Part shown: positions 35,009-58,497 of the stretch, one piece after another
Layout of the letters: every line of letters begins with the position of its first letter
How positions within the stretch are numbered: position 1 is the stretch's first letter
NCBI GenBank assembly: GCA_964489065.1
Contig: CAZAXH010000006.1
Location: 2,867 to 66,866 of the forward strand
Length of the DNA: 64,000 bases
Source of the DNA: an uncultured Planctomycetales bacterium
GTDB taxonomy: Bacteria > Omnitrophota > Gorgyraeia > Zapsychrales > JANLHA01
Reading direction: 5' to 3'
Position numbers and translations under genes: made by a program
Notes under the pieces: model-generated
What the model saw: the letters and a program-made list of their open reading frames with translations, nothing else
What the model was told of the DNA's origin: nothing
Databases searched by the model: none

Positions 35009-35147
35009 ATTTGAAGTTAAATATTAATTGAGGTGGTTGAAACTTTTAGAATATTTTAGAAATAGATATTAACTTTTTATATTTCAATAATTATTGCGTA
35101 GGAGATTGTGTTGTTTTCTTTCCAATATATAATAATCCCTTGGGTTC

Positions 35148-35822
35148 TTAATAAAATAATATTTTCCTCAATAATGGCCACTTCCAGGAAATCGGTTCGG
35201 ATGTCATAGTTTCAAAGCCAAATTTTGTTACCGCCTGATCCAGTTGGAACCGATCCCAAGCCCGTAAATGTTGCCAGCGATGAAACAGGCAGCCGCAATC
35301 AGGACACAATATCTCATTGGCCTCGAGATTTTCTTTATTGCGGGTCGTCAGCACTAAATATCCCCCTCTCTTCAGGAGTCTTTGCGCTTCGGTTAACATT
35401 TGATTGAATTCCGACTCGGATAAATGTTCAATAACTTCCGTAGATATGATTAGATCAAAGAACTCATTTGGGAATACTGTGGGGAATGATTTTAAGCACA
35501 TAGCACCTTTAAATGCCAGCCTATTTTTACATCGGATTTGTGTCGCCTTCACACTATCTTCGGAAAAGTCGACGCCATAGATGTTTTGCCCGGATTTTAA
35601 ATAAGACGAGCAGGCATAAATAAGGTCGCCCAATCCACAGCTAAAATCTAAGATGTTGCATGATTTGCTAAAATGAATACGCTGTTGAATTTCTTTCGCA
35701 ACAGCTTTGCTTGCTTGGAATCCAAAATAATAGCTTCTATAAGAACGATTTGTTGAATAGTAATTCCATAACCTTGAAACTTTTTCTGGCGTCCAGCTTA
35801 TTTTGTGTTTTTGAAAGATCAT
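35148..35822 (-). CDS. Class I SAM-dependent methyltransferase
   Basis: 224 aa. It has ILDFSCGLGDL (motif I) and LVLTTRN (post-II). The gene is AT-rich. Confidence 0.7.
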   Translation of the reverse strand: MIFQKHKISWTPEKVSRLWNYYSTNRSYRSYYFGFQASKAVAKEIQQRIHFSKSCNILDFSCGLGDLIYACSSYLKSGQNIYGVDFSEDSVKATQIRCKNRLAFKGAMCLKSFPTVFPNEFFDLIISTEVIEHLSESEFNQMLTEAQRLLKRGGYLVLTTRNKENLEANEILCPDCGCLFHRWQHLRAWDRFQLDQAVTKFGFETMTSEPISWKWPLLRKILFY

Positions 35823-35877
35823 CGCGGCCCTTTTTAATTTAAATAATTAGATAATAAGATATATGTAATCCGTTTTG

Positions 35878-37425
35878 TCAAGTTGATGCTTTCTGAATAA
35901 TTGTACTTTTATGAAGGACAACTAGCAGGCTTGAGTAAATAATGATAAACAGAAGTGCTCCATATAATAAAGAATAAAAATAATTTAAGGATAAAGAGTC
36001 AATAAAAATATACGCCTTATGCAAGATAACAAATAAAATAAAAAGGTGCAAAATATTTTTTATAAGGGCGAATGAATATTGTGTATTAAAAATCCGAATT
36101 TTTTGATGGTGCAAATACCAATAAATCCATACAAAGTAAGTAATATATATTAATAGAGTTGACAAGGGCAGCCCTAAAATATCAAAATATTGGACCAAAA
36201 TGGTGGTAGATAACAATTTAATAACGAAAATTGAAGGGTAAAGAATAACAAAAAATTTGTTTTTATGAATTGCTGAGATAACACGAGTTGCAATTATGAC
36301 AGCGGCTTGGAAGAATATTAAAAAAATATAATATTGCAAAATTGGGCTAACCAGGGACGTTTCTCCTGTTGTAAATTTTCCTCTTTCAAAAAGAAAACCG
36401 ATAATGTCTTTGGAAGAAAGAAAAACATAGTAGCAGAAAGGAATGATAAGCATAACTAAAAAGTTAATAGCTCTGCGAACTGCATCAATGAGCTTATTTA
36501 TCTGTCGTTTTACTACCCATTCGGAAAAATATGAAAAGACAGCAATACCTAAGCTATATGTCAGCATCGAGGCGAGGGCATTGGGAATGCCTTGCCCGTA
36601 AGATAAAGCAGCTAGTTTTCCTGCTCCCAGGTAAGTGGCGACTTGTTTGTCGACAAATGATACAAAGTTAGGGAAAACTAGCGCGGAAAACAAATAAAGA
36701 AATTGGTGAAAGTCTGTGCCGGTTTTCAATATCTGGAAATTGAACTTTTTGTGTTTTAAAGAGAAAAAGTTTTTTTGGCATGTTTTGAAAGAGATCAGAA
36801 AGAAGCTGATGACGGCTCCCCAGATAAACCCATAGATAATTGAAATGAGTCCCCAATGTCTGTGGAATATGACTAGGAAGATTACGCCTATAAGGGGAAT
36901 CAGTACCTGAGGATACAATGATGTATTATATTCATGTTCGGCCTGAAGGATTGAAATGAAGAAACTGCTGATCGTGAAGAAGAAGAAATAGACCCCAATC
37001 CATTGGGAAAAGTGTAAATACGTTTGTGTTAAAATATTTGAGTTGAATAATGTTGGATTGGTTCGGACTAATAGGTGGGGTAAAATCCCACAGGAAAATA
37101 GGGAAACAAGGAATACCAGCACAGTGTAACAAACAAATACAACCAGCAGATAGTCTTGTCTATATTCAAGGTTCTTTTGTTCTTTGATTTTAAGATAGTT
37201 CGGAATAAAATACTGGTTAAAACTACTCGCCAAGACTGCATTGGTAAGAATCGGGACCATTAACGCGTAGAGGTAGATATCAACATATTCGTTGATGCCA
37301 AAATATTGGGCGACTAATAAATCAATAAAGAAATTAATTGTCTTTGTTATTAATAATATAAAAAAGATAGTACACGTTGTCTTTTTGAGCGGAGTGATTT
37401 TGAAACTTTTGAGGAAAAATGCCAT
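35878..37425 (-). CDS. MOP-superfamily oligosaccharide flippase (Wzx/MurJ-like)
   Basis: 515 aa with about 12-14 TM helices and no soluble domains. Its position and composition are typical of O-unit flippases. It is very AT-rich. Confidence 0.65.
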   Translation of the reverse strand: MAFFLKSFKITPLKKTTCTIFFILLITKTINFFIDLLVAQYFGINEYVDIYLYALMVPILTNAVLASSFNQYFIPNYLKIKEQKNLEYRQDYLLVVFVCYTVLVFLVSLFSCGILPHLLVRTNPTLFNSNILTQTYLHFSQWIGVYFFFFTISSFFISILQAEHEYNTSLYPQVLIPLIGVIFLVIFHRHWGLISIIYGFIWGAVISFFLISFKTCQKNFFSLKHKKFNFQILKTGTDFHQFLYLFSALVFPNFVSFVDKQVATYLGAGKLAALSYGQGIPNALASMLTYSLGIAVFSYFSEWVVKRQINKLIDAVRRAINFLVMLIIPFCYYVFLSSKDIIGFLFERGKFTTGETSLVSPILQYYIFLIFFQAAVIIATRVISAIHKNKFFVILYPSIFVIKLLSTTILVQYFDILGLPLSTLLIYITYFVWIYWYLHHQKIRIFNTQYSFALIKNILHLFILFVILHKAYIFIDSLSLNYFYSLLYGALLFIIIYSSLLVVLHKSTIIQKAST

Positions 37426-37435
37426 TTTAGGGGTG

Positions 37436-38251
37436 TTACCCTTTCTTCAGGAATACAAACTGATTGTTCCCTGTCCCTAAACAAGTTTTAATATTGGTTA
37501 GCACGAACCCCCTATCTATATAAAATTTAAAAATATCTTCGACTTTGGCGAACTCGTACGGGTATCCTCCCAACCAGTCAAACCAGTTATGGACGATAGA
37601 CATCCCTCGTCTCTTTTTGTAATTAGAAAATAAATTTTCCCTTTTTACAATGCTTGCGGTTAAGGATTTTATGAAAAAATATGGGATGAAGATTGCAGTT
37701 GCCAGTATTCGATTCATAGAATTGGAACAGTAAAACTTTTTAACGATTTTCCAGAATTTTGATGCTAGCCCGGCATCGTTATAAATTGCCAGGACTAAAA
37801 GGCCTTCGGGCCGGACTAATTTGGAGGCGTTCTCCAGAGCTTCCCAGATTTTCCCGGTGTGATGCAGAACGCCCCAGGAGTAAACAATATCGTATTGTCC
37901 CAATGTTTTTATGTAGTTTTGGTCAAGGATGGAACCATTTTCTATCGTCCACTGGGTATCATTATCAAAAAATTTATTTCTAAGTATTTTTGTGCATTCC
38001 ACTGAATCCGGGTCATAATCAAAAGAACGGACTATGGCTCCTAATCGTCTGGCCGACAGGGAAAATAACCCACTCCCGGATCCGATATCCAAGACAGTCT
38101 TCCCTTCTAGATTGTTTCTTTGAAGAAGGTCCTGCAGGGATTTCTCGGCTTCCCGAATCCTTTCTTCTGATAAAGTTGATAAAAAGGATTTCCAGTTTTT
38201 GCCGAATTCATATCTTTGGCCGCTTTTTATTTCTTCAGCGAATGAACCCAT
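37436..38251 (-). CDS. Class I SAM-dependent methyltransferase
   Basis: 271 aa. It has VLDIGSGSGLFS (motif I). Confidence 0.75.
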   Translation of the reverse strand: MGSFAEEIKSGQRYEFGKNWKSFLSTLSEERIREAEKSLQDLLQRNNLEGKTVLDIGSGSGLFSLSARRLGAIVRSFDYDPDSVECTKILRNKFFDNDTQWTIENGSILDQNYIKTLGQYDIVYSWGVLHHTGKIWEALENASKLVRPEGLLVLAIYNDAGLASKFWKIVKKFYCSNSMNRILATAIFIPYFFIKSLTASIVKRENLFSNYKKRRGMSIVHNWFDWLGGYPYEFAKVEDIFKFYIDRGFVLTNIKTCLGTGNNQFVFLKKG

Positions 38252-38263
38252 TTTTGAATCTCC

Positions 38264-39442
38264 TTATTTTAGGTTGGAATCGATTATTGTTTCTAGCAAA
38301 GGGATAACCGATCGAGTTGTATATTTTCCGCCCTTTTCCTTTGACTGTTTTTGCATGTGCTGATAGAGCCCCGAATCTGTTAATAACTGTATTAAAAAAT
38401 TTGACATGCTTGAAATATGACCTCTTTTTTCAACGATGAAACCATTCTCCCCGTGTGTAATGATTTGATCAATGCTATTGTTGAAACGGGTCACAACACA
38501 GGGAAGCCCCAGATACATCGCTTCTAAAAGTGAGTTAGGAAAACCTTCGTAGTGCGATGGCATAAAGAAAATAGATGCCTGTTTTAAATATAAATAAGGA
38601 TTTTTCTGGAACCCCAGAAACTTTACATAGTTTTGTATCTGCATATTTTGGGCCATGTTTTGTAGCTTGTCAAGAAGCGGCCCTTGACCAAGAATCCAGT
38701 ATTCACATGACACCTTTTCATAGGTCTTTTTAAAGACTTGTAAGCCGTCTTCATACCCTTTTTGTTCAACCAGACGTCCGATGGATATAATAATAGGGCC
38801 TCGTTTGACAAAATCTATTCGCGATGAAGTTAAATGCGGCCCGTTAATGGATTTTTCAATAAATATATCATCTATAAAGTTAGGAAAAATGAAATATCGC
38901 AGTTTAGATTTCTTGATGAGTTTTCTAAAATCATCAATAATAGCTTGTGACGGAGCGATAAATATGTCCGCGAATCTATATAAAATAAAAAAAGAAAGAA
39001 TCTTTAATATTTTTTTTGATTTTTTATGTAATCGTGCCTTAAGGACGTTTGTTTCCCGGATGATCAGTATTGTTTTTTGAAGTCCTGCCACATAACGAGC
39101 GGGGACGCTCAGGATATTAGTATAAAAACCGATGCTGATAAGGCAATCTGGTTTAATAACTTTCAGTGCTTTTGCTATCTTTTTTATGTTTACTATGTGG
39201 TGAATGAAACTGGTATTATCAATTTCTGCGCTTAATGTGTGTATTGTTACGTCTGGGGATATGAATTGTCTGTATTCCCCGGTATCTTTTAACAGGATTA
39301 AAGTTAAACGGTATTTCTGCCTGCTTAAATTATTTAAAAGATGTGTTGCGATCCTCTCGGCCCCTCCCCCTTGCATTGTCGCCAAGATGATTCCGATATT
39401 TTTTTTCTTAAAATTGTTTTCTTGCGGTGTATTTAATTCCAT
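38264..39442 (-). CDS. GT4-family glycosyltransferase
   Basis: 392 aa. The C-terminal EGFPNSLLEAMYLGLPCV matches the E-x7-E GT4 motif. Confidence 0.8.
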   Translation of the reverse strand: MELNTPQENNFKKKNIGIILATMQGGGAERIATHLLNNLSRQKYRLTLILLKDTGEYRQFISPDVTIHTLSAEIDNTSFIHHIVNIKKIAKALKVIKPDCLISIGFYTNILSVPARYVAGLQKTILIIRETNVLKARLHKKSKKILKILSFFILYRFADIFIAPSQAIIDDFRKLIKKSKLRYFIFPNFIDDIFIEKSINGPHLTSSRIDFVKRGPIIISIGRLVEQKGYEDGLQVFKKTYEKVSCEYWILGQGPLLDKLQNMAQNMQIQNYVKFLGFQKNPYLYLKQASIFFMPSHYEGFPNSLLEAMYLGLPCVVTRFNNSIDQIITHGENGFIVEKRGHISSMSNFLIQLLTDSGLYQHMQKQSKEKGGKYTTRSVIPLLETIIDSNLK

Positions 39443-40617
39443 CGGCTTTCTTCGTTTAGGACCGTTTGATACACTTTAATATAGTTTTTTGATATTATGC
39501 TGAAATCATATTGCGCTTTGACCTGAAGGGCCGCGGCTTGAGCGAGAGTCGCCCGTATCGCGACGTTTGATACGCAACGCGTTATTGTTTGGCATAATTT
39601 CTGCAAGTCCCCCACAGGGACGAGGATGCCATTTTGGCGGTCTGTTATGAGTTCCCGGTTCCCCCTGATATCAGAGGCGATGATACATAACCCTGATGCC
39701 ATGGCTTCCAGGAGGACATTTGAAACCCCTTCACTTCTGGAAAGGAAAATAAAGATATCGGCTATTTGGTAGTAAAGTTCAGGGTGTTCCTGGGCTCCTG
39801 CGAAGAAAATGTGCGGCAGTTTTTTGTCTGAAACGGTTTTCTTGATCTCTTCTTCCACGGAATCCTTCCGGTAGCCTTCGCCGCCGCATTTCCCGCTGCC
39901 GACTAGAATCAATTGAGCGGTAGGATGAATGTGCAGGACGTCCGGCCAGATAGTGATGATATCTTCCAGCCCTTTGCCCTCAACCAGACGGCCTGTGTAC
40001 AGGAAGATTAAATCATCGGGGCCGAAATGGAACCGTTCTCTAAGGCGCTCTTTCTCTTCCCTGTTTAGCGGTTTAAATCGTTCGGTGTCCACCCCGTTAT
40101 AGAGTTTTTTAATCCTGTCGGGAGGCGTGCCGATTTCCAGCAGCTGCTGCCGTATTTGTTCGGAGAGCCCGGTGATGGCGGCCGAGCGACTGAATATTTT
40201 TAAAACGATGCTCCCCCACGGCTTTTTTTGCAACTGGGGAATGCGAAGTGAGGAGGAAACCTTGGCCACGTTCTTTCTACCGGAGAGGAAGGCCATCACT
40301 CTGCCGACGGCCCCCAGTGCGGCCGCGCCATGCGTGTGAATGACATCGAATGTTTTCCGTTTCTTCAGGGCGAAAATGAAGAGTTCCAATATGTAACTGG
40401 CCGTCGCCCATATTGACCGGCCAGGCATTCCAACCCGGAAGACAGGAAACCCGAACGCGGAATCCCGGCGCGGCAGATTTTTGTCCCACCGGCGGGTTAA
40501 GACCGTGATCTCGCACCCGGACTCCGATAACCGCGAGGCCAACTGCGTCATCTGGCTTTCCGCCCCGCCCCAATACGGGGCGTAACAATCTATAACCATT
40601 AAGATTCTAATTTTCAT
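39433..40617 (-). CDS. GT4-family glycosyltransferase
   Basis: 394 aa. It has the SEGVSNVLLEAMASGLCII GT4 motif and an N-terminal GT4 N-domain. Confidence 0.8.
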   Translation of the reverse strand: MKIRILMVIDCYAPYWGGAESQMTQLASRLSESGCEITVLTRRWDKNLPRRDSAFGFPVFRVGMPGRSIWATASYILELFIFALKKRKTFDVIHTHGAAALGAVGRVMAFLSGRKNVAKVSSSLRIPQLQKKPWGSIVLKIFSRSAAITGLSEQIRQQLLEIGTPPDRIKKLYNGVDTERFKPLNREEKERLRERFHFGPDDLIFLYTGRLVEGKGLEDIITIWPDVLHIHPTAQLILVGSGKCGGEGYRKDSVEEEIKKTVSDKKLPHIFFAGAQEHPELYYQIADIFIFLSRSEGVSNVLLEAMASGLCIIASDIRGNRELITDRQNGILVPVGDLQKLCQTITRCVSNVAIRATLAQAAALQVKAQYDFSIISKNYIKVYQTVLNEESRWN

Positions 40618-41701
40618 GCGAGTTGAGAGATGAAACGATTCCTTTTAGAGTTTGTCCAATTTGGCTTTCCGAACAGTATTTTTCAAAAGTCAGATATCCA
40701 TTTTCAGCAATGCGGTTTCTCAACTCAGGATTTTCCCGAAGTTCAAGAACCGCATCAGCCAGGCTACGGGGATCCTCCGGGTTGCAGAAAAACACGTCCT
40801 TTCTGTGTTCCAGAAGTTCCCTCACGGCAGGTGTGTCGGCAGTAATGACCGCTTTCTTCATGGCGATGGCTTCGTACACTTTATGAGGAATAACCATTTG
40901 AGTTTTAGGGGTGTCCCCAAAAAGCCCCAGACACACAGACGCGCGGGCCATATAATGAGCCAGGTCTTCATATGGGACCGGCGGCAAGAACGTAATATTC
41001 TTCAAATTGAGTTCTTGGGCTAATTGAACACATTGCAGATGATGTTGCCCTTTACCGATCATTTGAAATTTAATATCCGGCAGAAGCGCTGCGGCTTTGA
41101 CAATATAAATCGCGCCATGGAGGGGTTGATATTCTCCGTGAAAATGAACCAGGAATTCCTTTTCTTCAAGGATGTCGGTCCGGGGATGCATGACCGACGT
41201 GTCCGAGCCCACTAAAACTTTTACGAAGTGCCGCTTCTCAAGACGATATTCCTTATGAAAGTATTGGATATGTTGATCGGTATCCAGGATGACGATGTCG
41301 GCGAATCGGCAGGCCATCCGGTCGAAAAATCTCGCTAAATGAGCCAGGACGCTTCCGGCCCTGAATACTTTGCGGTCGTAAACCATTGTCTGGTGAATTG
41401 ACAAAAAAGCGTCCAAGATGATTTTTTTACGGGTGCAGAGTTTTACGAAAGGGATAAGGAACTGGCCGAGAAAGCCTATAAAAATGAAATCACTCTTATC
41501 TTTATATTTTAAAAAATAAAAGAAACTTAAAAAATAACGCAGTTTGGATTTAAGCGCGCAGGAACAATCATAAATTTTCAGTTCCTCCACGGTTTGCAGG
41601 CTTCTTAAGATAACCCGTGTCCTGGCATAGCTGGATTCCCGGCCCGGCAAGAAACAGATTGATACTTGTGAATCAGCCATTTTAATTTTAGTGCCAAGCA
41701 T
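40607..41701 (-). CDS. GT4/GT1-like glycosyltransferase
   Basis: 364 aa. The C-terminal region KVYEAIAMKKAVITADTPAVRELL is GT-B-like. Confidence 0.65.
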   Translation of the reverse strand: MLGTKIKMADSQVSICFLPGRESSYARTRVILRSLQTVEELKIYDCSCALKSKLRYFLSFFYFLKYKDKSDFIFIGFLGQFLIPFVKLCTRKKIILDAFLSIHQTMVYDRKVFRAGSVLAHLARFFDRMACRFADIVILDTDQHIQYFHKEYRLEKRHFVKVLVGSDTSVMHPRTDILEEKEFLVHFHGEYQPLHGAIYIVKAAALLPDIKFQMIGKGQHHLQCVQLAQELNLKNITFLPPVPYEDLAHYMARASVCLGLFGDTPKTQMVIPHKVYEAIAMKKAVITADTPAVRELLEHRKDVFFCNPEDPRSLADAVLELRENPELRNRIAENGYLTFEKYCSESQIGQTLKGIVSSLNSHEN

Positions 41702-41802
41702 AAAGATATCTTAACTTATAGAATAATGATGATCCCTGTTGACGAGTGCCGGGCGGTGTCCGTCGTCCTTAAGCACGTTTTGCATATCCGATTCCAGTTT
41801 AC

Positions 41803-42738
41803 TTACATCCCTGACTTCTTGATCCTGAGAAGAATATCTTCAATCAGGCGTCTGTTCGCAGAGATAAGATCAGAAACAAGCCCGATAATGAGAATTTGAA
41901 ATCCGATGATTACCAAAACGGCGGCTAAAATCAAGGATTGGATTTTCCCCTCCCCGCTTCCCATAATGAAATAATAAAGAAAGCGGCAGCCGAGCAGAAA
42001 GCCCAGTAAAGAAAGCCCGGAGCCGATTGTCAAGAACAGCCGTAACGGGTTGAACATGGAATAGACGCGGATGATGGTCAGAACAGACCGTTTAATATAT
42101 TCCGGAATACTTTTAAACAATCTGGACGGCCGGTGGACTTCATTCGTTGTGATCGTAATATTGGCTATGGCCAGGTTTTTGTGCTCGGCCTGGATGATGC
42201 TTTCCAGAGTATAAGTGTATTCCGAAATAATGTTGAGATTGAGGGCCGCTTCCCGGTTGTAAGCGCGGAATCCGGTTGTCGCGTCAATGATAGAGGTTCC
42301 GCTGAGCTGTCTGACGACCCAGCTGCCGAGTTTCTGCAGTCGTTTTTTAATGAACGAAAATTGTTTGACGTTTTCAATGTCCCGATTGCCTATGACAATA
42401 TCGGCTTTCCCCTCAAGGATAGGCCTTACCAGGCGGGGGATGTCTTCCCCTTTATACTGCCCATCCGCGTCGGTATTGACAATGATATCCGCCCCCATAG
42501 CCAAGGCCGCATCCAACCCCGCTTGAAAGACCCTCGCCAATCCCTTCTTTTTCGTGAACTTTATGATGTGATGCACCCCGTGCTCTTGGGCCACCACCGA
42601 GGTGTTATCGGTGCTCCCGTCATCGATGATAAGGATTTGAATGTCATCGACTCCGTCAATATGCTTGGGTAAGTCCGCCAATGTTTTGGGCAGACTTTCC
42701 GCTTCATTAAGGCAGGGAATTTGTATGACTAATTTCAT
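41803..42738 (-). CDS. GtrB/ArnC-like GT2 polyprenyl-phosphate sugar transferase with two C-terminal TM helices
   Basis: 311 aa. It has IPCLNE, IIDDGSTDNT and TDADGQY (DxD) motifs, plus C-terminal membrane helices as in bactoprenol glucosyl/arabinosyl transferases. Confidence 0.8.
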   Translation of the reverse strand: MKLVIQIPCLNEAESLPKTLADLPKHIDGVDDIQILIIDDGSTDNTSVVAQEHGVHHIIKFTKKKGLARVFQAGLDAALAMGADIIVNTDADGQYKGEDIPRLVRPILEGKADIVIGNRDIENVKQFSFIKKRLQKLGSWVVRQLSGTSIIDATTGFRAYNREAALNLNIISEYTYTLESIIQAEHKNLAIANITITTNEVHRPSRLFKSIPEYIKRSVLTIIRVYSMFNPLRLFLTIGSGLSLLGFLLGCRFLYYFIMGSGEGKIQSLILAAVLVIIGFQILIIGLVSDLISANRRLIEDILLRIKKSGM

Positions 42739-42817
42739 GGCCGGCCCCTAAAGTATTTTTGTTTGTTTCCTTAAAATTTATATAAATAAAATTTCACTAA
42801 CGTCTTAAGCCTCTGTT

Positions 42818-43822
42818 TCAGCCGGGATAATAAACTTTCTTCCAATAATCCTGTAAGAATTTAAGCTTGTTGAAAAGCCACTCATAATGGTCCATAGCCC
42901 ATGCGGCTGTGGTTTGCATCCCTTCTTCAAACGATATTTGGGGTTCCCACCCGAGGCTGCGGATTTTGTCGGCATTTAAAGAATAGCGGATATCATGGCC
43001 GGGCCGATCCTTGACGAATTGAATGAGGCTATGCGGTTTGCCGACCAGACTTAGAATGGCCCGGACGGTCTCGATGTTTTTCTTTGTTATATGAGAGCCG
43101 ACATTGTAAACTTCGCCCACGCGGCCTTTGGCCAGAACCAAAAGAATCGCCTGCACGCAATCCGAAACATGGAGCCATTCCCTCATCTGCAGGCCTTTCC
43201 CGTACACCGGTATTTTTTGTCCGTTCAGCGCCTTGAGGAGCACGACAGGGACAAGTTTCTCCGGGTATTGCCAGGGCCCGTAATTATTTGACGGCCGCAC
43301 AATGATGGCCGGGAATTTGTGGGCTCTGACGGCCGCTTGGATTAAGAAGTCCGCGGCGGCCTTGGTTGAGGAATACGGATTGTTGGGGTGCAGCGGCGAT
43401 GATTCCGTGAAAGCCCCTTTGGGGATCTCCCCGTAGACTTCATCAGTGGAAATATGGATGAAACGCGGGACCCGGTGCCGGCGCGCGTAGTCTATGAGAG
43501 TCGCGGTCCCCTGGATATTGGTGGAAATGAACGGGGAAACATCCAATAAGCTTCTGTCCACGTGTGTCTCCGCGGCGAAATGGACTATGGCGGAAGGCCG
43601 TTCTTTCTTGATAATATCGTCAATTTTTTTGGCCTGAACGATATCCGCCTTATAAAATGTGATTTGATTCTTAACCGGTTGTAAACGGACCACATCTCCG
43701 GCGTATGTCAATTTATCGATAACGGCGACGCGGTGGCCCTTTTCAACCGCATTGCGGACAAAGGTGCTGGCAATAAAGCCCGCGCCTCCGGTTACGAGCA
43801 GTTTATGTAATCTTTGACGCAT
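42818..43822 (-). CDS. rfbB: dTDP-glucose 4,6-dehydratase
   Basis: 334 aa SDR. It has TGGAGFIAS and the YxxxK catalytic motif (YSSTKAAAD). The start overlaps the next gene. Confidence 0.9.
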   Translation of the reverse strand: MRQRLHKLLVTGGAGFIASTFVRNAVEKGHRVAVIDKLTYAGDVVRLQPVKNQITFYKADIVQAKKIDDIIKKERPSAIVHFAAETHVDRSLLDVSPFISTNIQGTATLIDYARRHRVPRFIHISTDEVYGEIPKGAFTESSPLHPNNPYSSTKAAADFLIQAAVRAHKFPAIIVRPSNNYGPWQYPEKLVPVVLLKALNGQKIPVYGKGLQMREWLHVSDCVQAILLVLAKGRVGEVYNVGSHITKKNIETVRAILSLVGKPHSLIQFVKDRPGHDIRYSLNADKIRSLGWEPQISFEEGMQTTAAWAMDHYEWLFNKLKFLQDYWKKVYYPG

Positions 43823-44622
43823 TCTTCCAGAATATCCTTTATGGGGCGAACTTTAAAACGGGTTGATTCGAGTTTCTTCGTCGACAGGATCAGGTTCGTC
43901 CTGACTAACTTTAAATCTTTAAAACCGATGACGGTGTAACGGAAATCCGGGGCATATTTTGAATAGATTCTCATTAAATCCGGGTAACGCAGTCCGCCTT
44001 TATTCACGACGTTATAAATCCCCTTCGCATCAATTTTAATAAGGTGCTGCAAAGCGCGGATAAAATCCGGGATGTACGTCACGGAGTTCGGCACGTCGAT
44101 AATTCTTTTATATTTGATAAGTTTTGTCAAAATATTTTTAGGATGCGGCTGGTTGTCCAGGGGGACGCGGATCCGGATGGTAAGGATATTATACTTTTTG
44201 GCCAAAGCGTTGAGCACATGCTCGGCATAAATTTTTGTGCGGCTGTAATAGAGCTCGAAGAAATCCGGCACCATGGTTTCCGTGATGGGCTTGGATTTTT
44301 TATAATCATAATGATAAATGCAGCCGCTGCTGATATGAACAAATTTCACGTTATACCGCAGGCAGGCTTCCGCCAACAGAATAGGGACGAACGTGTTGGC
44401 GGAGATGCTTTTGTCCGGATTACGTTCGCAGTCATCGATATTCTGGATGCCGGTGTATCCGATACAATTGATAAGAATTTTTGGACGGACTTTGCGGACC
44501 AGTTGAACGGCGTCTTGGAAGGAAGATATCCTTTCCTTTGATAAGGTGCCCCCAAGTTCTTTTTTCAGCCTTTGGCCAATGTATCCTTTCCCGACAATCA
44601 ATACCTTATTTTTCATGAACAA
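43792..44622 (-). CDS. RmlD-like NAD(P)H-dependent dTDP-4-keto-6-deoxyhexose reductase
   Basis: 276 aa. It has VLIVGKGYIGQ and YSRTK (YxxxK), with overall similarity to the dTDP-4-dehydrorhamnose reductase fold. No rmlC epimerase gene is in the window. Confidence 0.6.
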   Translation of the reverse strand: MFMKNKVLIVGKGYIGQRLKKELGGTLSKERISSFQDAVQLVRKVRPKILINCIGYTGIQNIDDCERNPDKSISANTFVPILLAEACLRYNVKFVHISSGCIYHYDYKKSKPITETMVPDFFELYYSRTKIYAEHVLNALAKKYNILTIRIRVPLDNQPHPKNILTKLIKYKRIIDVPNSVTYIPDFIRALQHLIKIDAKGIYNVVNKGGLRYPDLMRIYSKYAPDFRYTVIGFKDLKLVRTNLILSTKKLESTRFKVRPIKDILEECVKDYINCS

Positions 44623-48562: not shown

Positions 48563-49333
48563 TTATTTTTGCGGCTTTTGATTCCCGATAACCAGATTTT
48601 TAAGAATATTGGTAAACCTGTCCCGGTTGATGACCGGGATGAACCGGCCATCAGACGCCAGAGAAACTTCGCCGGATTCTTCTGAAACCATAACGACGAT
48701 TGCGTCCGTCTGTTCCGTTAAGCCCAGCGCGGCCCGGTGGCGCGTCCCGATAATTTTACTGAAACTGGGGTTGTCGGACAACGGGAACAGGCAGGCACAG
48801 GCAATAATCCTGTCCCGGCGGATTACAATCCCGCCGTCGTGCAAAGGGGAACTATGATTAAAGATGCTTTGTATGAGTTCAGAGGAAATTTTCGCGTCAA
48901 GGCTAATGCCGCTTTCAATGTAAGTTTTCAGTTTTGAGTCACGTTCAATCGCCATGATGCATCCGGTCTTGTTTTTTGAGAACCGGTAAGCGGCGTCGGA
49001 AATTTCCTCGATAATCGCCATGACTTCAGTTTCTTCCAGGGCGATATTAAAAAGATGCCGCTGCCCCAGGCGCGCCAGGCCCAATCGCAGTTCCTGCTGG
49101 AAAATAATCAAAAGCGCGATAATGGATATGCCAAACAGTTTTGTCAGCAACCAGTTAATGGTGTCCAGTCCCGCGATCTGTGAAAGCACAAACGCGAAAA
49201 CAAGCAGGGTGACGCCTTTCAGTACTTGAAAGGAGCGTGTCCCTTCAAAAAAAACCAGCGTCTGGTAAAAGATAAACCAAAGGATGGCTATTTCAATGAC
49301 TGGTTTTAAAAATGACCAAATGAAAAAAAACAT
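48563..49333 (-). CDS. cdaA: Diadenylate cyclase CdaA (c-di-AMP synthase), membrane-anchored
   Basis: 256 aa with three N-terminal TM helices. The DAC domain has the DGA (LHDGGIVI) and RHRAA motifs. Confidence 0.85.
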   Translation of the reverse strand: MFFFIWSFLKPVIEIAILWFIFYQTLVFFEGTRSFQVLKGVTLLVFAFVLSQIAGLDTINWLLTKLFGISIIALLIIFQQELRLGLARLGQRHLFNIALEETEVMAIIEEISDAAYRFSKNKTGCIMAIERDSKLKTYIESGISLDAKISSELIQSIFNHSSPLHDGGIVIRRDRIIACACLFPLSDNPSFSKIIGTRHRAALGLTEQTDAIVVMVSEESGEVSLASDGRFIPVINRDRFTNILKNLVIGNQKPQK

Positions 49334-53403: not shown

Positions 53404-53973
53404 TTATTCACCCAGGAGTCCCTTCTTTTCCGCACGGGCGTCCCGATACGCTTCCCGGAGCTCCTCGGCATATTTGAAATTGGGCGGTTGTATATGCAGG
53501 TGGGCGAATCCTTGCCGGACAATTTCGGCATTCACGAAACGCCGGTCTTCGGCTAAGAAAACGTAAGCAAGATCAGCCGCGAATTCATCCTTCTTTCGGA
53601 TATCGAATTCCAGGGTGATTCTTTTCCCAAGGAGTAGCGTACGGACAAAATCAATAGCACGTTCTTCCAGGGACATCTCCGGCGAAGGTTCTTTCGTGAT
53701 GAATCCGTATTGGTCACGGATAATTTTTTTTTGCCGGGGCGGTTCCGGGGATTTAATCCCGATCAGTTTAATTTTATCTTTGTGGTCCAGGATGATCGTG
53801 TCGGCGGATATGACTCCCGTTACCATGCGTTCTTTTCCCGGCTTGTTTAGGAACTGAATTTCCTCCGCCGCCGGAAGGGGTGAAGAAAAATAACATGCCG
53901 CCAACCACAAGACCCCAATTCTTTTAATGGGTTCTAACATGAAACGGCGGCAATAAAACCTGGACAGGACCAT
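53404..53973 (-). CDS. Secreted thermonuclease (SNase/micrococcal nuclease-like) protein
   Basis: 189 aa with a signal peptide. The core DGDTI-like segment (ISADTIILD), LIGIKSPE, and ADLAYVFL...EIVRQGFA match the SNase fold. Confidence 0.65.
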   Translation of the reverse strand: MVLSRFYCRRFMLEPIKRIGVLWLAACYFSSPLPAAEEIQFLNKPGKERMVTGVISADTIILDHKDKIKLIGIKSPEPPRQKKIIRDQYGFITKEPSPEMSLEERAIDFVRTLLLGKRITLEFDIRKKDEFAADLAYVFLAEDRRFVNAEIVRQGFAHLHIQPPNFKYAEELREAYRDARAEKKGLLGE

Positions 53974-53979
53974 AGACGT

Positions 53980-54222
53980 TTATGATGAGCTATGCCGGGC
54001 GGGTTGATGAAGCTCGACAAAATAATCAATGGAACGGTTAAACGTCTTTTCTGCCTCTGCCGGGAAGAAACAGGCGGGAATTTGCCCTTTTTTTCTGTGG
54101 TAGCGAACACACTCGCAGCAAATCCCGGCTTTGTCGCACCCTGTATAGGTACAGTTACAGCCTTCCATGTTAATAGATTTATTAGGGCATTTCATCGCGA
54201 TGTCCTCTTCAAAAGATATCAT
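53980..54222 (-). CDS. Small Cys-rich cytoplasmic protein (DUF6485-like)
   Basis: 80 aa with eight Cys (CPNK...CNCTYTGCDKAGICCECVRYH...ACF). The pattern recalls a conserved small Cys-rich family of unknown function. Confidence 0.45.
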   Translation of the reverse strand: MISFEEDIAMKCPNKSINMEGCNCTYTGCDKAGICCECVRYHRKKGQIPACFFPAEAEKTFNRSIDYFVELHQPARHSSS

Positions 54223-54271: not shown

Positions 54272-55258
54272 TTAAAAAATTCCGGCACGCGGCCGTCGCC
54301 AGAAGAAGCCGTAAAGCAGCGTCCCCCCCAGCAGAAAAAGCGTTGGCGGCTCTGGCACGGCTTTAACGTTGAACACCGTGACATAATCGATTTCATAAAG
54401 GTAGTCTATGTTTTCCTGGAGGTTTGGGGAGGACTGAAGGCTGGGGTCATAGGCCAAGGCCCATTCCGGGCCCGGCACCCAGATGTTGAGGCGCATGTTC
54501 AGCGGGTGGGTTGGTATATCGCTGTTGGCTTCGGACACCCGGACGTCATTGACGTACCATTCTATCTTATTCGGGAACCACACGATTTTATAGGTATTAA
54601 ATTCTGTGATGTTAACTCCGTCCGGAAACGGGAGTGTTTCCGGACGTCCCGCGGCGGAGGGCGGTTCACTGACAAAGCGATTGACCAGAAACTGCGGAGT
54701 GCCGCCGGCCGGCAGATAAAGATTGGACAGGAATTCCATGTCAATCTCATCTTTTAAATTCCCTGCCCCTATTTCGCCGAATCCGAATATGGAAGTAATC
54801 ACTCCCGGGGGGATGGATTCGGAGGCCCGCACCCTGGCTTCCAAGGCGATCCCTTGCTTCTGGGTGGGAAAAAATGTTTGAATCGTGTCAATCTCGGATC
54901 CCCAGAACGTCAGGTGGGCGGGGTCGGTGGGGTTATATGTGCTTAACAGGAGTTTGGCCACGCCAACAGCGGGATCCGCGAGAGAATTCCCGATTTCCAC
55001 GGTTTTCCGTAAGCCGCCGGTCATGCTGTCAGGGATATGGGGGTTGCGGATCGCCGTCTGCCCGAAAAAGCCCGCAGGGCCTTCCGGTGTGGTCCAAAGG
55101 GAACGGTCGACATCTTCGGCCGGGGTATTGAAGTCATCGTGAAACAGGATATCGGCTTCTGCGCGGGAGTGTATGAGGAGGAAAAACAAAAAAATCACAA
55201 GCCCGATGGGAAAAGACCCCGGGAACCGCCGGATTCGAACAGGGGAATGCATGATCAT
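54272..55258 (-). CDS. GH16/ConA-like glucanase-family protein with a C-terminal PEP-CTERM sorting signal
   Basis: 328 aa with a signal peptide. The EIDMEF (ExDxE) GH16 catalytic motif is present. The C-terminal VPEPPTLFLLGGTLLYGFFWRRPRAGIF is a canonical PEP + TM + basic cluster. Confidence 0.6.
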   Translation of the reverse strand: MIMHSPVRIRRFPGSFPIGLVIFLFFLLIHSRAEADILFHDDFNTPAEDVDRSLWTTPEGPAGFFGQTAIRNPHIPDSMTGGLRKTVEIGNSLADPAVGVAKLLLSTYNPTDPAHLTFWGSEIDTIQTFFPTQKQGIALEARVRASESIPPGVITSIFGFGEIGAGNLKDEIDMEFLSNLYLPAGGTPQFLVNRFVSEPPSAAGRPETLPFPDGVNITEFNTYKIVWFPNKIEWYVNDVRVSEANSDIPTHPLNMRLNIWVPGPEWALAYDPSLQSSPNLQENIDYLYEIDYVTVFNVKAVPEPPTLFLLGGTLLYGFFWRRPRAGIF

Positions 55259-55654: not shown

Positions 55655-56083
55655 TTAATAAGAGATGTTGAGGAGTTTGTGATTTTCAAAGGTCAGGCGG
55701 ATGGGACGCCATCGGGAGGTGTTGGCCTTATGAGAATCTTGTTGATATGTCCAGATTTCGGTTACGCTGACCTGAGAAATCAAGCGGTAAATATCGTCGG
55801 GCGCCCCGAACCGGGCCTGTATTTCCTGTCCCGAGAGGCCCGGCTTCAGTTCCCCCTCCATCACGGCCGTATTCAAGGCATGGAAGTTGGCTTCTTGAGC
55901 GGCTATGGCCGCCTTTTGTTCCGCTTGTTTGGCGGCGCTGCAGTTTGATAAAACAAGAACAGCAAAACATAAAGCCGACAGCTTTATTGTTCGGAGTGTA
56001 CGTATAAAAGTATGCGAAGGACGGTTATCCATAGGGAGGAAAGAATATTTATTAAGACTCTCGATTCTAGCCCGGGATTTCAT
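55655..56083 (-). CDS. BamE/SmpA (OmlA)-like lipoprotein
   Basis: It has the lipobox LSNC, then LKPGLSGQEIQARFGAPDDI ... WTYQ, resembling the BamE fold motif. The true start is probably the internal Met near 56032. Confidence 0.45.
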   Translation of the reverse strand: MKSRARIESLNKYSFLPMDNRPSHTFIRTLRTIKLSALCFAVLVLSNCSAAKQAEQKAAIAAQEANFHALNTAVMEGELKPGLSGQEIQARFGAPDDIYRLISQVSVTEIWTYQQDSHKANTSRWRPIRLTFENHKLLNISY

Positions 56084-56114: not shown

Positions 56115-56417
56115 TCATCTAAAAATGTAATAAAGCAAGCCCAGGACAATCAGGAAACAAATCAAGTAGAAATCATTATAATAAAAAAAATCCTGCACAC
56201 GTTCCAGGGATGTGTAAGGATGGTTTGTTTCTTTTTCCTGGGGCACCTGCCCTTGCGCCCTTAAAGCGACAACCTCGGATTTTTTGAGCCTCAAGAATTG
56301 ATTCGCGATCCGATAAGCGATGAGTTGCTTTTTTTCAATGAGGTCCATAACCTGTTTCTCCGTAATATCCAGGATTTGGGCCGTCTCTCTCACCGAGATA
56401 TATTGGTTCTCATTCAT
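56115..56417 (-). CDS. Membrane-anchored excisionase-type HTH (HTH_17/MerR-superfamily) protein
   Basis: 100 aa. The N-terminal ISVRETAQILDITEKQVMDLIEKKQLIAYRIANQFLRLKKSEV matches the HTH_17 pattern. The C-terminal FYLICFLIVLGLLYYIF is a single TM helix. Confidence 0.55.
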   Translation of the reverse strand: MNENQYISVRETAQILDITEKQVMDLIEKKQLIAYRIANQFLRLKKSEVVALRAQGQVPQEKETNHPYTSLERVQDFFYYNDFYLICFLIVLGLLYYIFR

Positions 56418-56458
56418 ACCCGTCGTGTGTCCGTGCGTTCCCGTTATGCCAGAGATGT

Positions 56459-56983
56459 TTAATCTGTTATTTTCCCGGAAGCCGCCCAGGTATCAATCTT
56501 GGAACGCTCGAAGGTCCAGTCGTTGCCGTTGCGTGTGGCGGGTATTTGGCCGGCGTTCGCCAATTCGATAATGGCCGGCGATTCAATCTCCAGGTATTTG
56601 GAGAGTTCTTCCACCGAAAGGATGTCTTCCATCATCTGACATTTTCCCTGGAATATCGCCCCTTCCACCACATTCAGTTTGGGCGTGGAAATATTCCCGG
56701 TTAATACGGCTGTCGGCATCAGTACGAGCATTTTTTTCGCGATAATATCGCCCCGTACTTTACCGGCGATAATAATATTTTCACCGGTAATGTGGGCTTC
56801 CACAAACGCGGCATTTCCGATGGTCAATGTGCCACGGACTTCCAGGGTGCCTTTAAAATTGCCGTTAACTTTTAAATTAACCGGATCCTTAAAAGATAAT
56901 GTCCCCTGCATTTGCGCGTTGATGTCAATACTTTTTTCCTGAGGTTCGACTTCATTGACCCTGTTGCGGCCCCGGATCACCAT
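56459..56983 (-). CDS. Bactofilin (DUF583 beta-helix) fused to a C-terminal excisionase-type HTH
   Basis: 174 aa. Bactofilin repeats are present (GTLEVRGTLTIGNAAFVEAHITGENIIIAGKVRGDII...). The C-terminal LSVEELSKYLEIESPAIIELANAGQIPATRNGNDWTFERSKIDTWA is an HTH_17-like domain. The listed start overlaps MgtC by 32 nt, and an alternative start at M25 (56911) is possible. Confidence 0.6.
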   Translation of the reverse strand: MVIRGRNRVNEVEPQEKSIDINAQMQGTLSFKDPVNLKVNGNFKGTLEVRGTLTIGNAAFVEAHITGENIIIAGKVRGDIIAKKMLVLMPTAVLTGNISTPKLNVVEGAIFQGKCQMMEDILSVEELSKYLEIESPAIIELANAGQIPATRNGNDWTFERSKIDTWAASGKITD

Positions 56984-57440
56984 AGCATCCTCCTTGGTTG
57001 TTTAATCCATTTTTCAATCTTTTCTCTAATGAACGCACGCCCACCAGCACAAAGAAGACTGCGAGGGTCACGATGATCGCTGCAGAATATAAACCTGTGC
57101 CTACGGCCATTCCGATTCCGGATACGATCCATAAGGTGGCGGCCGTGGTTAATCCGATGACGTTAGATTCGCAGCGGATGATCGTCCCCGCGCACAAAAA
57201 ACCGATGCCTGTTACGATGCCTGTAATAATACGCGTCGGGTCTACGAGGGTTTCATTTCTTAAAGTATAAAAAATATGATAGGACGTGAGCACAAACAAG
57301 CCTGACCCCAGCCCAACGAGAATATGGGTTCTTAATCCCGCGCCTTTATGCCGGGCTTCCCTTTCACCTCCGATCAGGCTGCAGAGTAAAATGGTTAAAA
57401 TGAGTTTGAAGAGGAGTTCTCCAAGAGAAGATGTATTCAT
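56952..57440 (-). CDS. MgtC/SapB-family membrane protein
   Basis: 162 aa. The LLCSLIGGEREARHKGAGLRTHILV motif is typical of the MgtC N-terminal domain. Confidence 0.8.
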   Translation of the reverse strand: MNTSSLGELLFKLILTILLCSLIGGEREARHKGAGLRTHILVGLGSGLFVLTSYHIFYTLRNETLVDPTRIITGIVTGIGFLCAGTIIRCESNVIGLTTAATLWIVSGIGMAVGTGLYSAAIIVTLAVFFVLVGVRSLEKRLKNGLNNQGGCYGDPGPQQGQ

Positions 57441-57507
57441 TTTAAACCTCTTTGATTATATTAGATATCATTATTTTAGCAAATACTTCATAAATGAAAA
57501 TTGATTT

Positions 57508-58497
57508 CTAATTTTTTAAACAGTGGTAGGCTAGGCCGGCTACCATAGCCGCGTTATCCATGCACAAGCTTAGATCTGGGGAATAAACCTTTATGCTATT
57601 GGATGTTGCGGCTTCTTCAAGGGCCTCTCTCAGGCGGGAATTGGCGGCCACTCCTCCTCCGATGATTAAGTTTCGGATACGGAAATCCAGGCAGGCGGTG
57701 ATGCATTTTTTTATGAGAACCGATACGACACTTTCCTGAAAAGCACGCACGATCCCGGCCTTATGGGCGCTATCCTGGATTTTATTTTTTTGATGATAAT
57801 ATAAAACGGCTGTTTTGATCCCGCTAAAACTGAAATCATATGTCCCCGGCATTTCAGCGCAACTGAAGGCCGGCGTATGGCCCGAGGCTTGCCGTGCCAT
57901 GCGGTCGATGACCGGCCCTCCCGGGTAGCCCAGGTTCAGGATGCGGGCGACCTTGTCGAACGCTTCCCCAGCAGCGTCATCGCGCGTTTTCCCGAGCTGT
58001 TTGAAATGAGTCCAGGATTTTATCAGATAGAGGCTGGTGTGCCCGCCAGACACAATCATCCCCACCGCTGGCAGGACGGCCGGCGGTGGCGATGTTTTCC
58101 CTTTTACAGTTTTGTTTAATAAAGGCGCGTACAGGTGAGCCTGGACATGATCGATTTCAATGAGGGGTTTATGCAGTGTGAGGGACAAGGCCCTGGCAAA
58201 GGAGAGCCCAACGAGCAGAGAGCCGATAAGCCCCGGAGATTTGGTCACGGCGATCGCGTTGACCCGGGACAGATCGCAGCGGGCTTCCAGCGCGGCGCGG
58301 CGAACGACAGGATTGATCGCTTCGAGCTGACGCCGGGAAGCAATTTCCGGGATGATGCCTCCGTATCGTGTATGCTCTTTAAGGCTGGAGGAAACGATGC
58401 TGGACCGGATCCAGCGCCCATCCTGGACTATGGCCGCGGCTGTTTCATCACAGGAAGTTTCTATTCCGAGAATATTCATGGGCTGGCCTTCTATCAC
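57508..58497 (-). CDS. tsaD: tRNA N6-adenosine threonylcarbamoyltransferase
   Basis: 329 aa. It has ILGIETSCDETAAAIV and the HxxxH metal site of Kae1/TsaD. Confidence 0.9.
   Translation of the reverse strand: MIEGQPMNILGIETSCDETAAAIVQDGRWIRSSIVSSSLKEHTRYGGIIPEIASRRQLEAINPVVRRAALEARCDLSRVNAIAVTKSPGLIGSLLVGLSFARALSLTLHKPLIEIDHVQAHLYAPLLNKTVKGKTSPPPAVLPAVGMIVSGGHTSLYLIKSWTHFKQLGKTRDDAAGEAFDKVARILNLGYPGGPVIDRMARQASGHTPAFSCAEMPGTYDFSFSGIKTAVLYYHQKNKIQDSAHKAGIVRAFQESVVSVLIKKCITACLDFRIRNLIIGGGVAANSRLREALEEAATSNSIKVYSPDLSLCMDNAAMVAGLAYHCLKN

Follow-up and report, generated by a model that had tools for sequence, protein, structure and literature searches.

The 64,000-nt stretch of contig CAZAXH010000006.1 analysed here (called the window below) contains five co-directional minus-strand open reading frames (ORFs): tsaD, an MgtC-family gene, two genes which we named bacHTH and hthTM, and a putative lipoprotein gene. 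The bacHTH gene encodes a 174-aa protein in which a bactofilin is fused to a winged helix-turn-helix (HTH) domain, and hthTM, directly downstream, encodes a 100-aa protein with an HTH of the same Pfam family and a single C-terminal transmembrane (TM) helix. We tentatively propose that the two products could form a two-component, membrane-associated bactofilin scaffold specific to Omnitrophota, in which the acidic HTH of the fusion docks the tail-anchored partner with its basic HTH. Statistics on the pair (gaps, N-termini, hydropathy, conservation and presence of MgtC) come from 77 fully recovered bacHTH-hthTM pairs, while charges, isoelectric points (pI) and the invariance of F111 were taken from 25 family sequences (a 25-sequence alignment). 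The pair and its parts are located as follows, in positions of the window, with the basis of each call in brackets.

56459..56983, minus strand: bacHTH, encoding the 174-aa bactofilin with winged HTH (ORF; Pfam Bactofilin and HTH_17 above cut-off)
56930..56983, minus strand: N-terminal tail of BacHTH, residues 1-18 (77 orthologue N-termini; disordered in the AlphaFold2 (AF2) model)
56633..56929, minus strand: bactofilin beta-helical core, residues 19-117, including the invariant F111 (Pfam match 19-116)
56462..56632, minus strand: fused acidic winged HTH of HTH_17 type, residues 118-174 (Pfam match 122-170)
56115..56417, minus strand: hthTM, encoding the 100-aa tail-anchored HTH_17 protein (ORF; Pfam HTH_17, 28.4 bits)
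56253..56405, minus strand: basic winged HTH of the partner, residues 5-55, with the near-invariant recognition helix S-E-K-K-V-M-D-L (conservation; pI)
56166..56192, minus strand: aromatic juxtamembrane motif D-F-F-Y-[FY]-N-D-F-Y, residues 76-84 of the partner (invariant in orthologues)
56121..56165, minus strand: C-terminal TM helix of the partner, residues 85-99, with at most 1-2 residues beyond it (hydropathy; AF2)
56989..56995, minus strand: AAGGAGG Shine-Dalgarno site, 5 nt upstream of the bacHTH ATG and within the 3' end of mgtC (sequence reading)

Both domains of the fusion were recovered by Pfam, as a preliminary description of this DNA had supposed. Bactofilin (PF04519) matches residues 19-116 with 81.1 bits (cut-off 27.9; E 7.5e-23; profile positions 3-98 of 98), and HTH_17 (PF12728) matches residues 122-170 with 34.9 bits (cut-off 27; E 1.8e-8). 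The TIGR01764 "excise" model gives 32.0 bits (cut-off 28.8), and a RodZ_C match inside the beta-helix reaches 13.4 bits, below its cut-off of 23.9. In the AF2 model, which was built on the 25-sequence alignment (mean pLDDT 80.7, pTM 0.57), residues 17-117 form a beta-helix, with pLDDT 79-93 across residues 21-110, and residues 122-168 form a winged HTH composed of helices 124-131 and 135-143, a hairpin of strands 150-152 and 155-159, and helix 160-168. The first 14 residues are disordered (pLDDT <50). When compared with the PDB by Foldseek, the beta-helix was matched to the T. thermophilus bactofilin (6rib; TM-score normalised to target 0.75) and to C. crescentus BacA (2n3d; 0.72), both with probability 1.00. 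For the fused HTH, the matches include BldC (6ama), Pukovnik Xis (4j2n), Tn916 Xis, RdfS, RacA (5i44), CbpM and 6hn7, and the root-mean-square deviation to BldC, Xis and RdfS is 1.5-3.2.

The residue known to matter for polymerisation is also present. F111 of the fusion aligns with F105 of ThBac and F130 of BacA and is invariant in 25 of 25 sequences; the title of entry 6ria and PMC12448750 indicate that exchange of this Phe for Arg abolishes polymerisation. BacHTH resembles the canonical bactofilins BacA and ThBac in its beta-helical core, its C-terminal interface Phe and its short N-terminal tail with basic and hydrophobic residues. The usual picture of a bactofilin, however, is a beta-helical core with disordered tails which recruit clients through short peptides, and BacHTH departs from it in that its C-terminus is a folded 55-residue winged HTH and not a disordered tail. 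The start of the gene at 56983 is supported by the AAGGAGG site and by I19, I21 and A23, which lie before the next Met and are invariant; GGAGG-type sites are found upstream of the bacHTH start in most of the orthologous loci listed.

The 100-aa downstream product had been described as an HTH_17 protein with a single C-terminal TM helix, which agrees with our results. Its HTH_17 match is narrowly above the cut-off of 27, its TIGR01764 match (20.9 bits) is below the cut-off of 28.8, and its profile matches Xis Gp37 (4j2n) with E 7e-4. Across the orthologues, the C-terminal helix starts at about residue 81-84, and its 17 residues average 2.73 on the Kyte-Doolittle scale. The AF2 model of the partner (mean pLDDT 68.7) shows the HTH elements in the same order as in the fusion at lower confidence, a low-confidence linker, and two confident helices at residues 70-80 and 82-99, the latter with pLDDT of about 93. 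The aromatic DFFYxNDFY motif is kept in distant partners, as DFFYFNSFY in locus L086 and DFFYTYDFY in locus L087. As for the earlier view that the two HTHs are paralogous, BLASTP gave no alignment between them, but a profile-profile comparison (hhalign) aligned them with probability 93%, E 3.4e-7 and 21% identity; judged from their profiles, the two HTHs are homologous but distant.

To what extent the two genes belong together can be seen from their relatives. In a collection with one genome per species, at least 116 species-level genomes carry a stretch encoding a relative of the fusion, which is a lower bound because the scan needed exact peptide motifs, and every traceable one belongs to Omnitrophota. 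Eighty of these loci were fetched, and in 79 of them hthTM lies directly downstream of bacHTH, the exception being a contig end. The gap between the genes has a median of 6 nt (41 nt in the window), and stop and start overlap (-4 or -1) in 30 of 77 pairs, that is, the two genes are translationally coupled. The pair is also retained in other neighbourhoods with fusions of 34-48% identity (L081, L086 and L087), whose partners all keep the TM helix, so the gene pair is conserved in relatives, a point for which the preliminary description had proposed a check. Loci labelled "uncultured Planctomycetales" (Third Party Annotation assemblies) are collinear with loci named Omnitrophota.

The family is large. 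In a set of 5.8 billion proteins, counted as cluster representatives at E 1e-3 or better, the fusion has at least 809 homologues and the partner at least 480. Among the best 120 fusion homologues, each with both Pfam domains, identity to the query is 69-99%, and the named members among them are Candidatus Omnitrophota or Omnitrophica. In a library clustered at 50% identity, HTH_17 was found in 35 and Bactofilin in 143 of the best 150 representatives, which indicates that the fusion is a distinct, moderately deep bactofilin clade. One member of the same bactofilin subfamily in the representative library, P0277 (40% identity over residues 5-130), has no HTH and ends in a PilZ domain (Pfam E 6.7e-10); this clade therefore seems open to more than one kind of folded effector domain at the C-terminus, and the PilZ-bearing relative hints at cyclic di-GMP control in some lineages. 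Another protein, P0282 (231 aa), is built of three HTH_17 repeats in tandem, whose recognition helices are basic (e.g. SKPYVYKLAKEGKIP), in contrast to the acidic fused HTH.

Conservation of the fusion is high. Identity to the BacHTH of the window is 60-77% in most species-level loci outside the close relatives and 34-48% in divergent members. In the same loci (L001-L080), the 60-77% of BacHTH compares with 54-64% for TsaD, 55-67% for CtpA and 34-46% for TilS. Bactofilins are usually far less conserved than this family. From these identities BacHTH appears to be under unusually strong purifying selection for a bactofilin, and in the same loci it is more conserved than TsaD, a universal tRNA-modification enzyme. 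Positions conserved in at least 95% of orthologues make up 44 of 99 in the bactofilin core, 10 of 53 in the fused HTH and 16 of 51 in the partner HTH.

The two HTHs carry opposite charges. For the fused HTH the mean net charge is -4.6 and the pI 4.47 (range 4.13-4.89), whereas the partner HTH has a mean charge of +2.7 and a pI of 9.18. Counted from the alignments, the HTH core is basic in BldC (+3) and Pukovnik Xis (+4) and acidic in the fusion (-5). The recognition helix reads D-P-K-T-V-T-R-W-A-K in BldC, S-T-K-T-V-R-N-Y-I-A in Xis and D-x-P-A-I-x-E-L-A-N in the fusion, where the P-A-I-x-E-L helix has no basic residue and deviates from the DNA-contact pattern K/R-T-V/L-R-x-Y/W of BldC and Xis; K-K-V-M-D-L of the partner matches this pattern in part. 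In the fused HTH, positions conserved in at least 90% of orthologues mostly belong to the hydrophobic core, together with E132, E159, R160 and D164, and the exposed recognition-helix positions 135, 137, 139, 143 and 144 are variable. In the partner HTH, R10, E11, Q14, E20, R43 and K45 are among the positions conserved in at least 95%, and K21, K22 and D25 reach 91-94%.

With its acidic charge, its P-A-I-x-E-L helix and its variable helix surface, the fused HTH does not look like a DNA binder but like a DNA reader which has degenerated and been retained for some other use. The idea of a DNA-binding cytoskeletal filament, put forward in the preliminary description, is weakened by the same features. 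Since only the partner HTH is both basic and conserved at its surface, only the partner keeps a reasonable chance of DNA binding, and its HTH could recognise one conserved ligand, either DNA or a protein. The small HTH_17/MerR-like winged helices BldC, Xis (Pukovnik Gp37 and Tn916), CbpM and MamR share the fold and the Pfam family, and CbpM among them is a pure protein binder.

In the mechanism we favour, to which we give somewhat less than an even chance, BacHTH would polymerise through its bactofilin beta-helix, and the filament would display an array of C-terminal winged HTHs which, being without DNA-reader features, would act as protein-docking modules. The partner would be co-translated and tail-anchored in the cytoplasmic membrane with its basic HTH facing the cytoplasm, where it would bind the filament, most likely through contact of the basic with the acidic HTH and/or through the invariant DFFYxNDFY juxtamembrane element. 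Such binding would fix the scaffold at the membrane or recruit the partner into the scaffold, and the likeliest process to be served would be the organisation of the envelope or the division site, as with other bactofilins.

Several known systems offer precedents for this docking mechanism. One is B. subtilis BacR, an HTH protein that docks on bactofilins at the membrane and is compared more closely below. RodZ is an HTH-TM protein which anchors the MreB polymer. Like the partner, it is a small bitopic protein with a cytoplasmic HTH, and this HTH binds a cytoskeletal polymer and not DNA, a logic which the partner would share. RodZ differs from the partner by the Xre type of its HTH, by a periplasmic domain and by working with the actin-like MreB, whereas the partner has an HTH_17 winged HTH, no periplasmic part and a bactofilin beside it. 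The title of PMC10945521 also names a cooperation between a bactofilin and an M23 endopeptidase. For protein binding by the fold itself, CbpM bound to the CbpA J-domain (3ucs) and 6hn7 are found among the Foldseek matches. Bactofilin clients are typically bitopic membrane proteins, and PbpC is a membrane-anchored client encoded by a neighbouring gene (PMC12448750).

There are also observations which weigh against docking by the partner. The distant fusions of L084 and L085 have no partner immediately downstream, where other genes are found. Virtually no linker separates the beta-helix from the HTH (about 5 residues: GKCQM-MED-ILSVEE), so that the HTH might hinder tail-to-tail polymerisation, and the pTM of 0.57 leaves the inter-domain geometry uncertain. 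The N-terminus of the fusion follows the consensus M-A-[LF]-[RN]-x-[RK]-[RK], and the canonical bactofilin membrane-targeting sequence reads MFSKQAKS or MFSRKTE, with the consensus MFSKxxK (PMC12448750); a hydrophobic residue at positions 2-3 and basic residues at positions 4-7 are alike in both, but the motif itself differs. The tail is possibly a degenerate membrane-targeting peptide. Because of this resemblance the filament may not need the partner to reach the membrane, and the partner would then be a client and not an anchor. In the fused HTH, R160 is invariant, position 151 is K or R in 75 of 77 orthologues and at position 162 K (46 of 77) prevails over Q (18) and R (9); these basic residues in or just after the wing could contact phosphate, and the acidic domain could still be able to bind a DNA site. 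Besides, covariation between the two proteins (mutual information with average product correction, 73 non-redundant pairs) is dominated by clade structure and gives no interpretable contacts, the top inter-protein pairs, such as B64-H39 and B7-H8, tracking clade splits.

A bolder statement, which we regard as possible but rather doubtful, is that the pair is a bactofilin polymer hard-wired to a winged helix and clamped to the membrane by its tail-anchored partner, making up a phylum-specific, near-essential module with either a new HTH-HTH membrane attachment or a filament-chromosome-membrane tether. The second option, close to the nucleoid anchoring suggested in the preliminary description, deserves to be weighed separately. 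As a nucleoid organiser or chromosome-to-membrane tether, one or both HTHs would bind DNA, the bactofilin polymer would make the binding multivalent, and the partner would pin a chromosomal region. Both HTHs belong to the HTH_17/excisionase family, which is mostly DNA-binding, and among the structural neighbours of the fused HTH are DNA-bound BldC, Xis and RacA, a chromosome anchor. On the basic partner HTH, the polar and charged residues of the surface hardly vary (R10, K21, K22, R43, K45), which fits one conserved ligand, for example a DNA site, and the fused HTH has its conserved basic positions 151 and 160 in or just after the wing. Extreme conservation and the housekeeping context would suit a core cell-cycle function, and bactofilins organise ParABS in Myxococcus (PMC5703909). 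However, the fused HTH is acidic in all family members examined and its recognition helix lacks K, R, Y and W, and no part of the protein is less conserved than the surface with which it would face DNA. The K-K-V-M-D-L of the partner departs from K-T-V-R-x-Y and its helix contains several acidic residues, no par genes adjoin the locus, and no conserved operator-like motif was seen by eye in the 36 upstream regions listed, which show only Shine-Dalgarno sites and generic -35/-10 boxes. BacNOP-PadC-ParB of Myxococcus and RacA-DivIVA of Bacillus likewise link a polymeric scaffold to a DNA-binding module, and the winged HTH of RacA is a neighbour of the fused HTH; but these systems use separate adaptors and basic domains with demonstrated DNA binding, whereas the domain of BacHTH is fused, acidic and without a DNA-contact motif. 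On balance we consider a tether unlikely.

The nearest described partnership between an HTH protein and bactofilins is BacR with BacE and BacF. In B. subtilis, BacE and BacF bind the adjacent HTH protein BacR (YhbD), bring it to the membrane and lower its binding to DNA (PMC13649987). By analogy, the HTH-TM protein could be a regulator held inactive at the membrane, with the acidic fused HTH as a decoy on its DNA-binding face; release would couple the state of the envelope to transcription and would need proteolysis, for which the CtpA or FtsH-type proteases encoded nearby are examples of candidates. Such a switch is in keeping with two HTHs of opposite charge, and membrane-tethered transcription factors are a known class, with ToxR and CadC as members. 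BacR is, like the proteins here, an HTH protein encoded beside bactofilin genes, but it is a soluble Firmicute DUF4004 protein of about 210 aa from a separate upstream gene, whereas here one of two HTH_17 domains is covalently part of the bactofilin and the other belongs to a tail-anchored protein; neither protein matches DUF4004 (PF13171) in a Pfam scan with E up to 0.1. An extracytoplasmic sensor is missing from the partner, whose chain ends no more than 2 residues after the TM helix, there is no sign of cleavage, and very high conservation together with probably one-to-one, translationally coupled expression suggests a structural and not a regulatory role. A switch of this kind is therefore quite improbable.

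That the HTH_17 genes are excisionases or MADS Mad1-like defence parts, fused to or placed beside a bactofilin by chance as the remnant or cargo of a mobile element, is recommended by the JGI label "excisionase family DNA binding protein" and by weak Mad1 matches (NF047737, 38.4 and 19.2 bits, far below the cut-off of 80; PADLOC mad1, E 0.003), but is ruled out for practical purposes by a locus that is collinear in at least 80 species genomes (GatA-GatB-CtpA-TsaD-...-TilS-FtsH-FolP), by neighbours among which the scan found no integrase or recombinase, and by phage and plasmid collections in which the fusion has no match (50,697 phage records) and no full-length match (72,556 plasmid records).

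The docking scaffold we favour would thus combine two familiar domains in a new way: the bactofilin with a fused winged helix and the obligate tail-anchored partner are new, and both domains are already known. The preliminary description did not recognise the architecture as described, and it is apparently uncharacterised, but it is not rare, since it forms a large family which databases annotate automatically as "polymer-forming cytoskeletal protein" or "excisionase family DNA binding protein" (JGI uses the latter). No curated NCBIfam model names the fusion family. In the literature library searched, we found no paper treating bactofilin together with excisionase; the titles and abstracts on bactofilin and helix-turn-helix concern separate proteins (BacR, PadC/ParB) and no fusion; and a search for bactofilin in Omnitrophota found only an unrelated evolutionary treatise. 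The folded winged HTH, the strict coupling to a partner and the conservation above TsaD suggest that the pair serves a core function of the cell in this large phylum, whose members are uncultured, mostly ultra-small and perhaps dependent on hosts. The pair is well suited to a clean test of how an HTH can turn from a DNA reader into a protein-docking module, and it also bears on how bactofilin scaffolds meet membranes or DNA. If the bolder statement made above is true, the module could take the place of some of the division or segregation machinery, or organise it, in ultra-small bacteria of the Planctomycetota-Verrucomicrobiota-Chlamydiota group. Both proteins are small (174 and 100 aa), which makes heterologous study possible without cultivating the organism.

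The remaining features of the locus are the following.

57508-58497, minus strand: tsaD (ORF)
56952..57440, minus strand: MgtC/SapB-family membrane protein gene, a facultative neighbour (Pfam MgtC, E 1.2e-35)
57455..57482, minus strand: promoter-like site TTGCTA-16-TATAAT between tsaD and mgtC (consensus scan 10/12, a pattern match only)
55655..56083, minus strand: putative 142-aa lipoprotein gene, 31 nt downstream of hthTM (ORF; sub-threshold DUF3862)

The last 32 nt of mgtC overlap the start of bacHTH, and a scan of the minus strand of the locus found no terminator-like site. The preliminary description placed the pair in an apparent operon with MgtC and a BamE-like lipoprotein. The MgtC neighbour itself was confirmed by Pfam, and the two-gene pair stands, but mgtC is directly upstream of bacHTH in only 39 of 77 loci, and the lipoprotein was found by tblastn in a minority of loci, where it is 24-41% identical once close relatives are set aside. 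We therefore regard the two genes of the pair, and not the four-gene string, as the functional unit, and since the lipoprotein is weakly conserved, its membership of the unit is doubtful. Its BamE-like identity is not supported: Pfam and NCBIfam did not recover it, and the sole match is DUF3862 at 15.4 bits (cut-off 25). In many of the loci without MgtC, sigma-70-like boxes and a GGAGG site can be seen by eye just upstream of bacHTH, and a promoter belonging to the pair itself would agree with the two genes forming a unit. A scan of the window found no further bactofilin or HTH copies.

The wider gene order is conserved as CtpA-(polysaccharide deacetylase)-TsaD-(MgtC)-BacHTH-HTHTM-...-SNase-TilS, and the pair of the window sits in a chromosomal housekeeping string, with GatA-GatB upstream and FtsH-FolP-DAC downstream past TilS. 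The DAC-domain gene (cyclic di-AMP synthase, CdaA-like) of the TilS-FtsH-FolP-DAC string lies at 48563-49333 of the window.

Among the divergent loci, L087 again has an MgtC gene upstream of the pair. In L081 (1-5841), whose fusion is 35% identical, the pair lies directly behind genes for a SPOR-domain protein, a TPR-PDZ protein and a protein of >1300 aa. SPOR domains bind septal peptidoglycan in other bacteria, and this context is a weak hint at a division or envelope function. In L084 (1-6848, JGI 3300009777), the distant bactofilin-HTH_17 fusion P0403 (31% identity) stands at the end of a cluster without an HTH-TM partner downstream. This cluster encodes a Volactin-like actin, a ParA/MinD-like ATPase with AMPK1_CBM, an HTH_3 regulator and a MamF_MmsF-family membrane protein, and may be a different organelle- or cytoskeleton-related cluster. 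A link to magnetosomes, to which a weak MamR match and the MamF_MmsF and actin-like genes of L084 might point, was rejected: the MamR model (NF040990) gives 17.9 bits against a cut-off of 100, and the titles and abstracts of the literature on magnetosomes and bactofilins contain no suggestion of a bactofilin role in magnetosome formation.

Further downstream of the pair, the window encodes a GH16-domain protein at 54272-55258, whose C-terminal PEP-CTERM match is sub-threshold (18.2 bits against 20.7), a small Cys-rich DUF6485 protein at 53980-54222, and a secreted staphylococcal-nuclease homologue at 53404-53973; the SNase-TilS pair is kept near the locus in many Omnitrophota. At 33245-44622 there is a surface-polysaccharide cluster with genes for asparagine synthase, two methyltransferases, a MurJ/Wzx-like flippase, three GT1/GT4 and one GT2 glycosyltransferases, and dehydratases/epimerases. 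Its GC content falls to 0.35-0.40 at 34-40 kb, and it is probably a glycan locus which varies or is exchanged horizontally.

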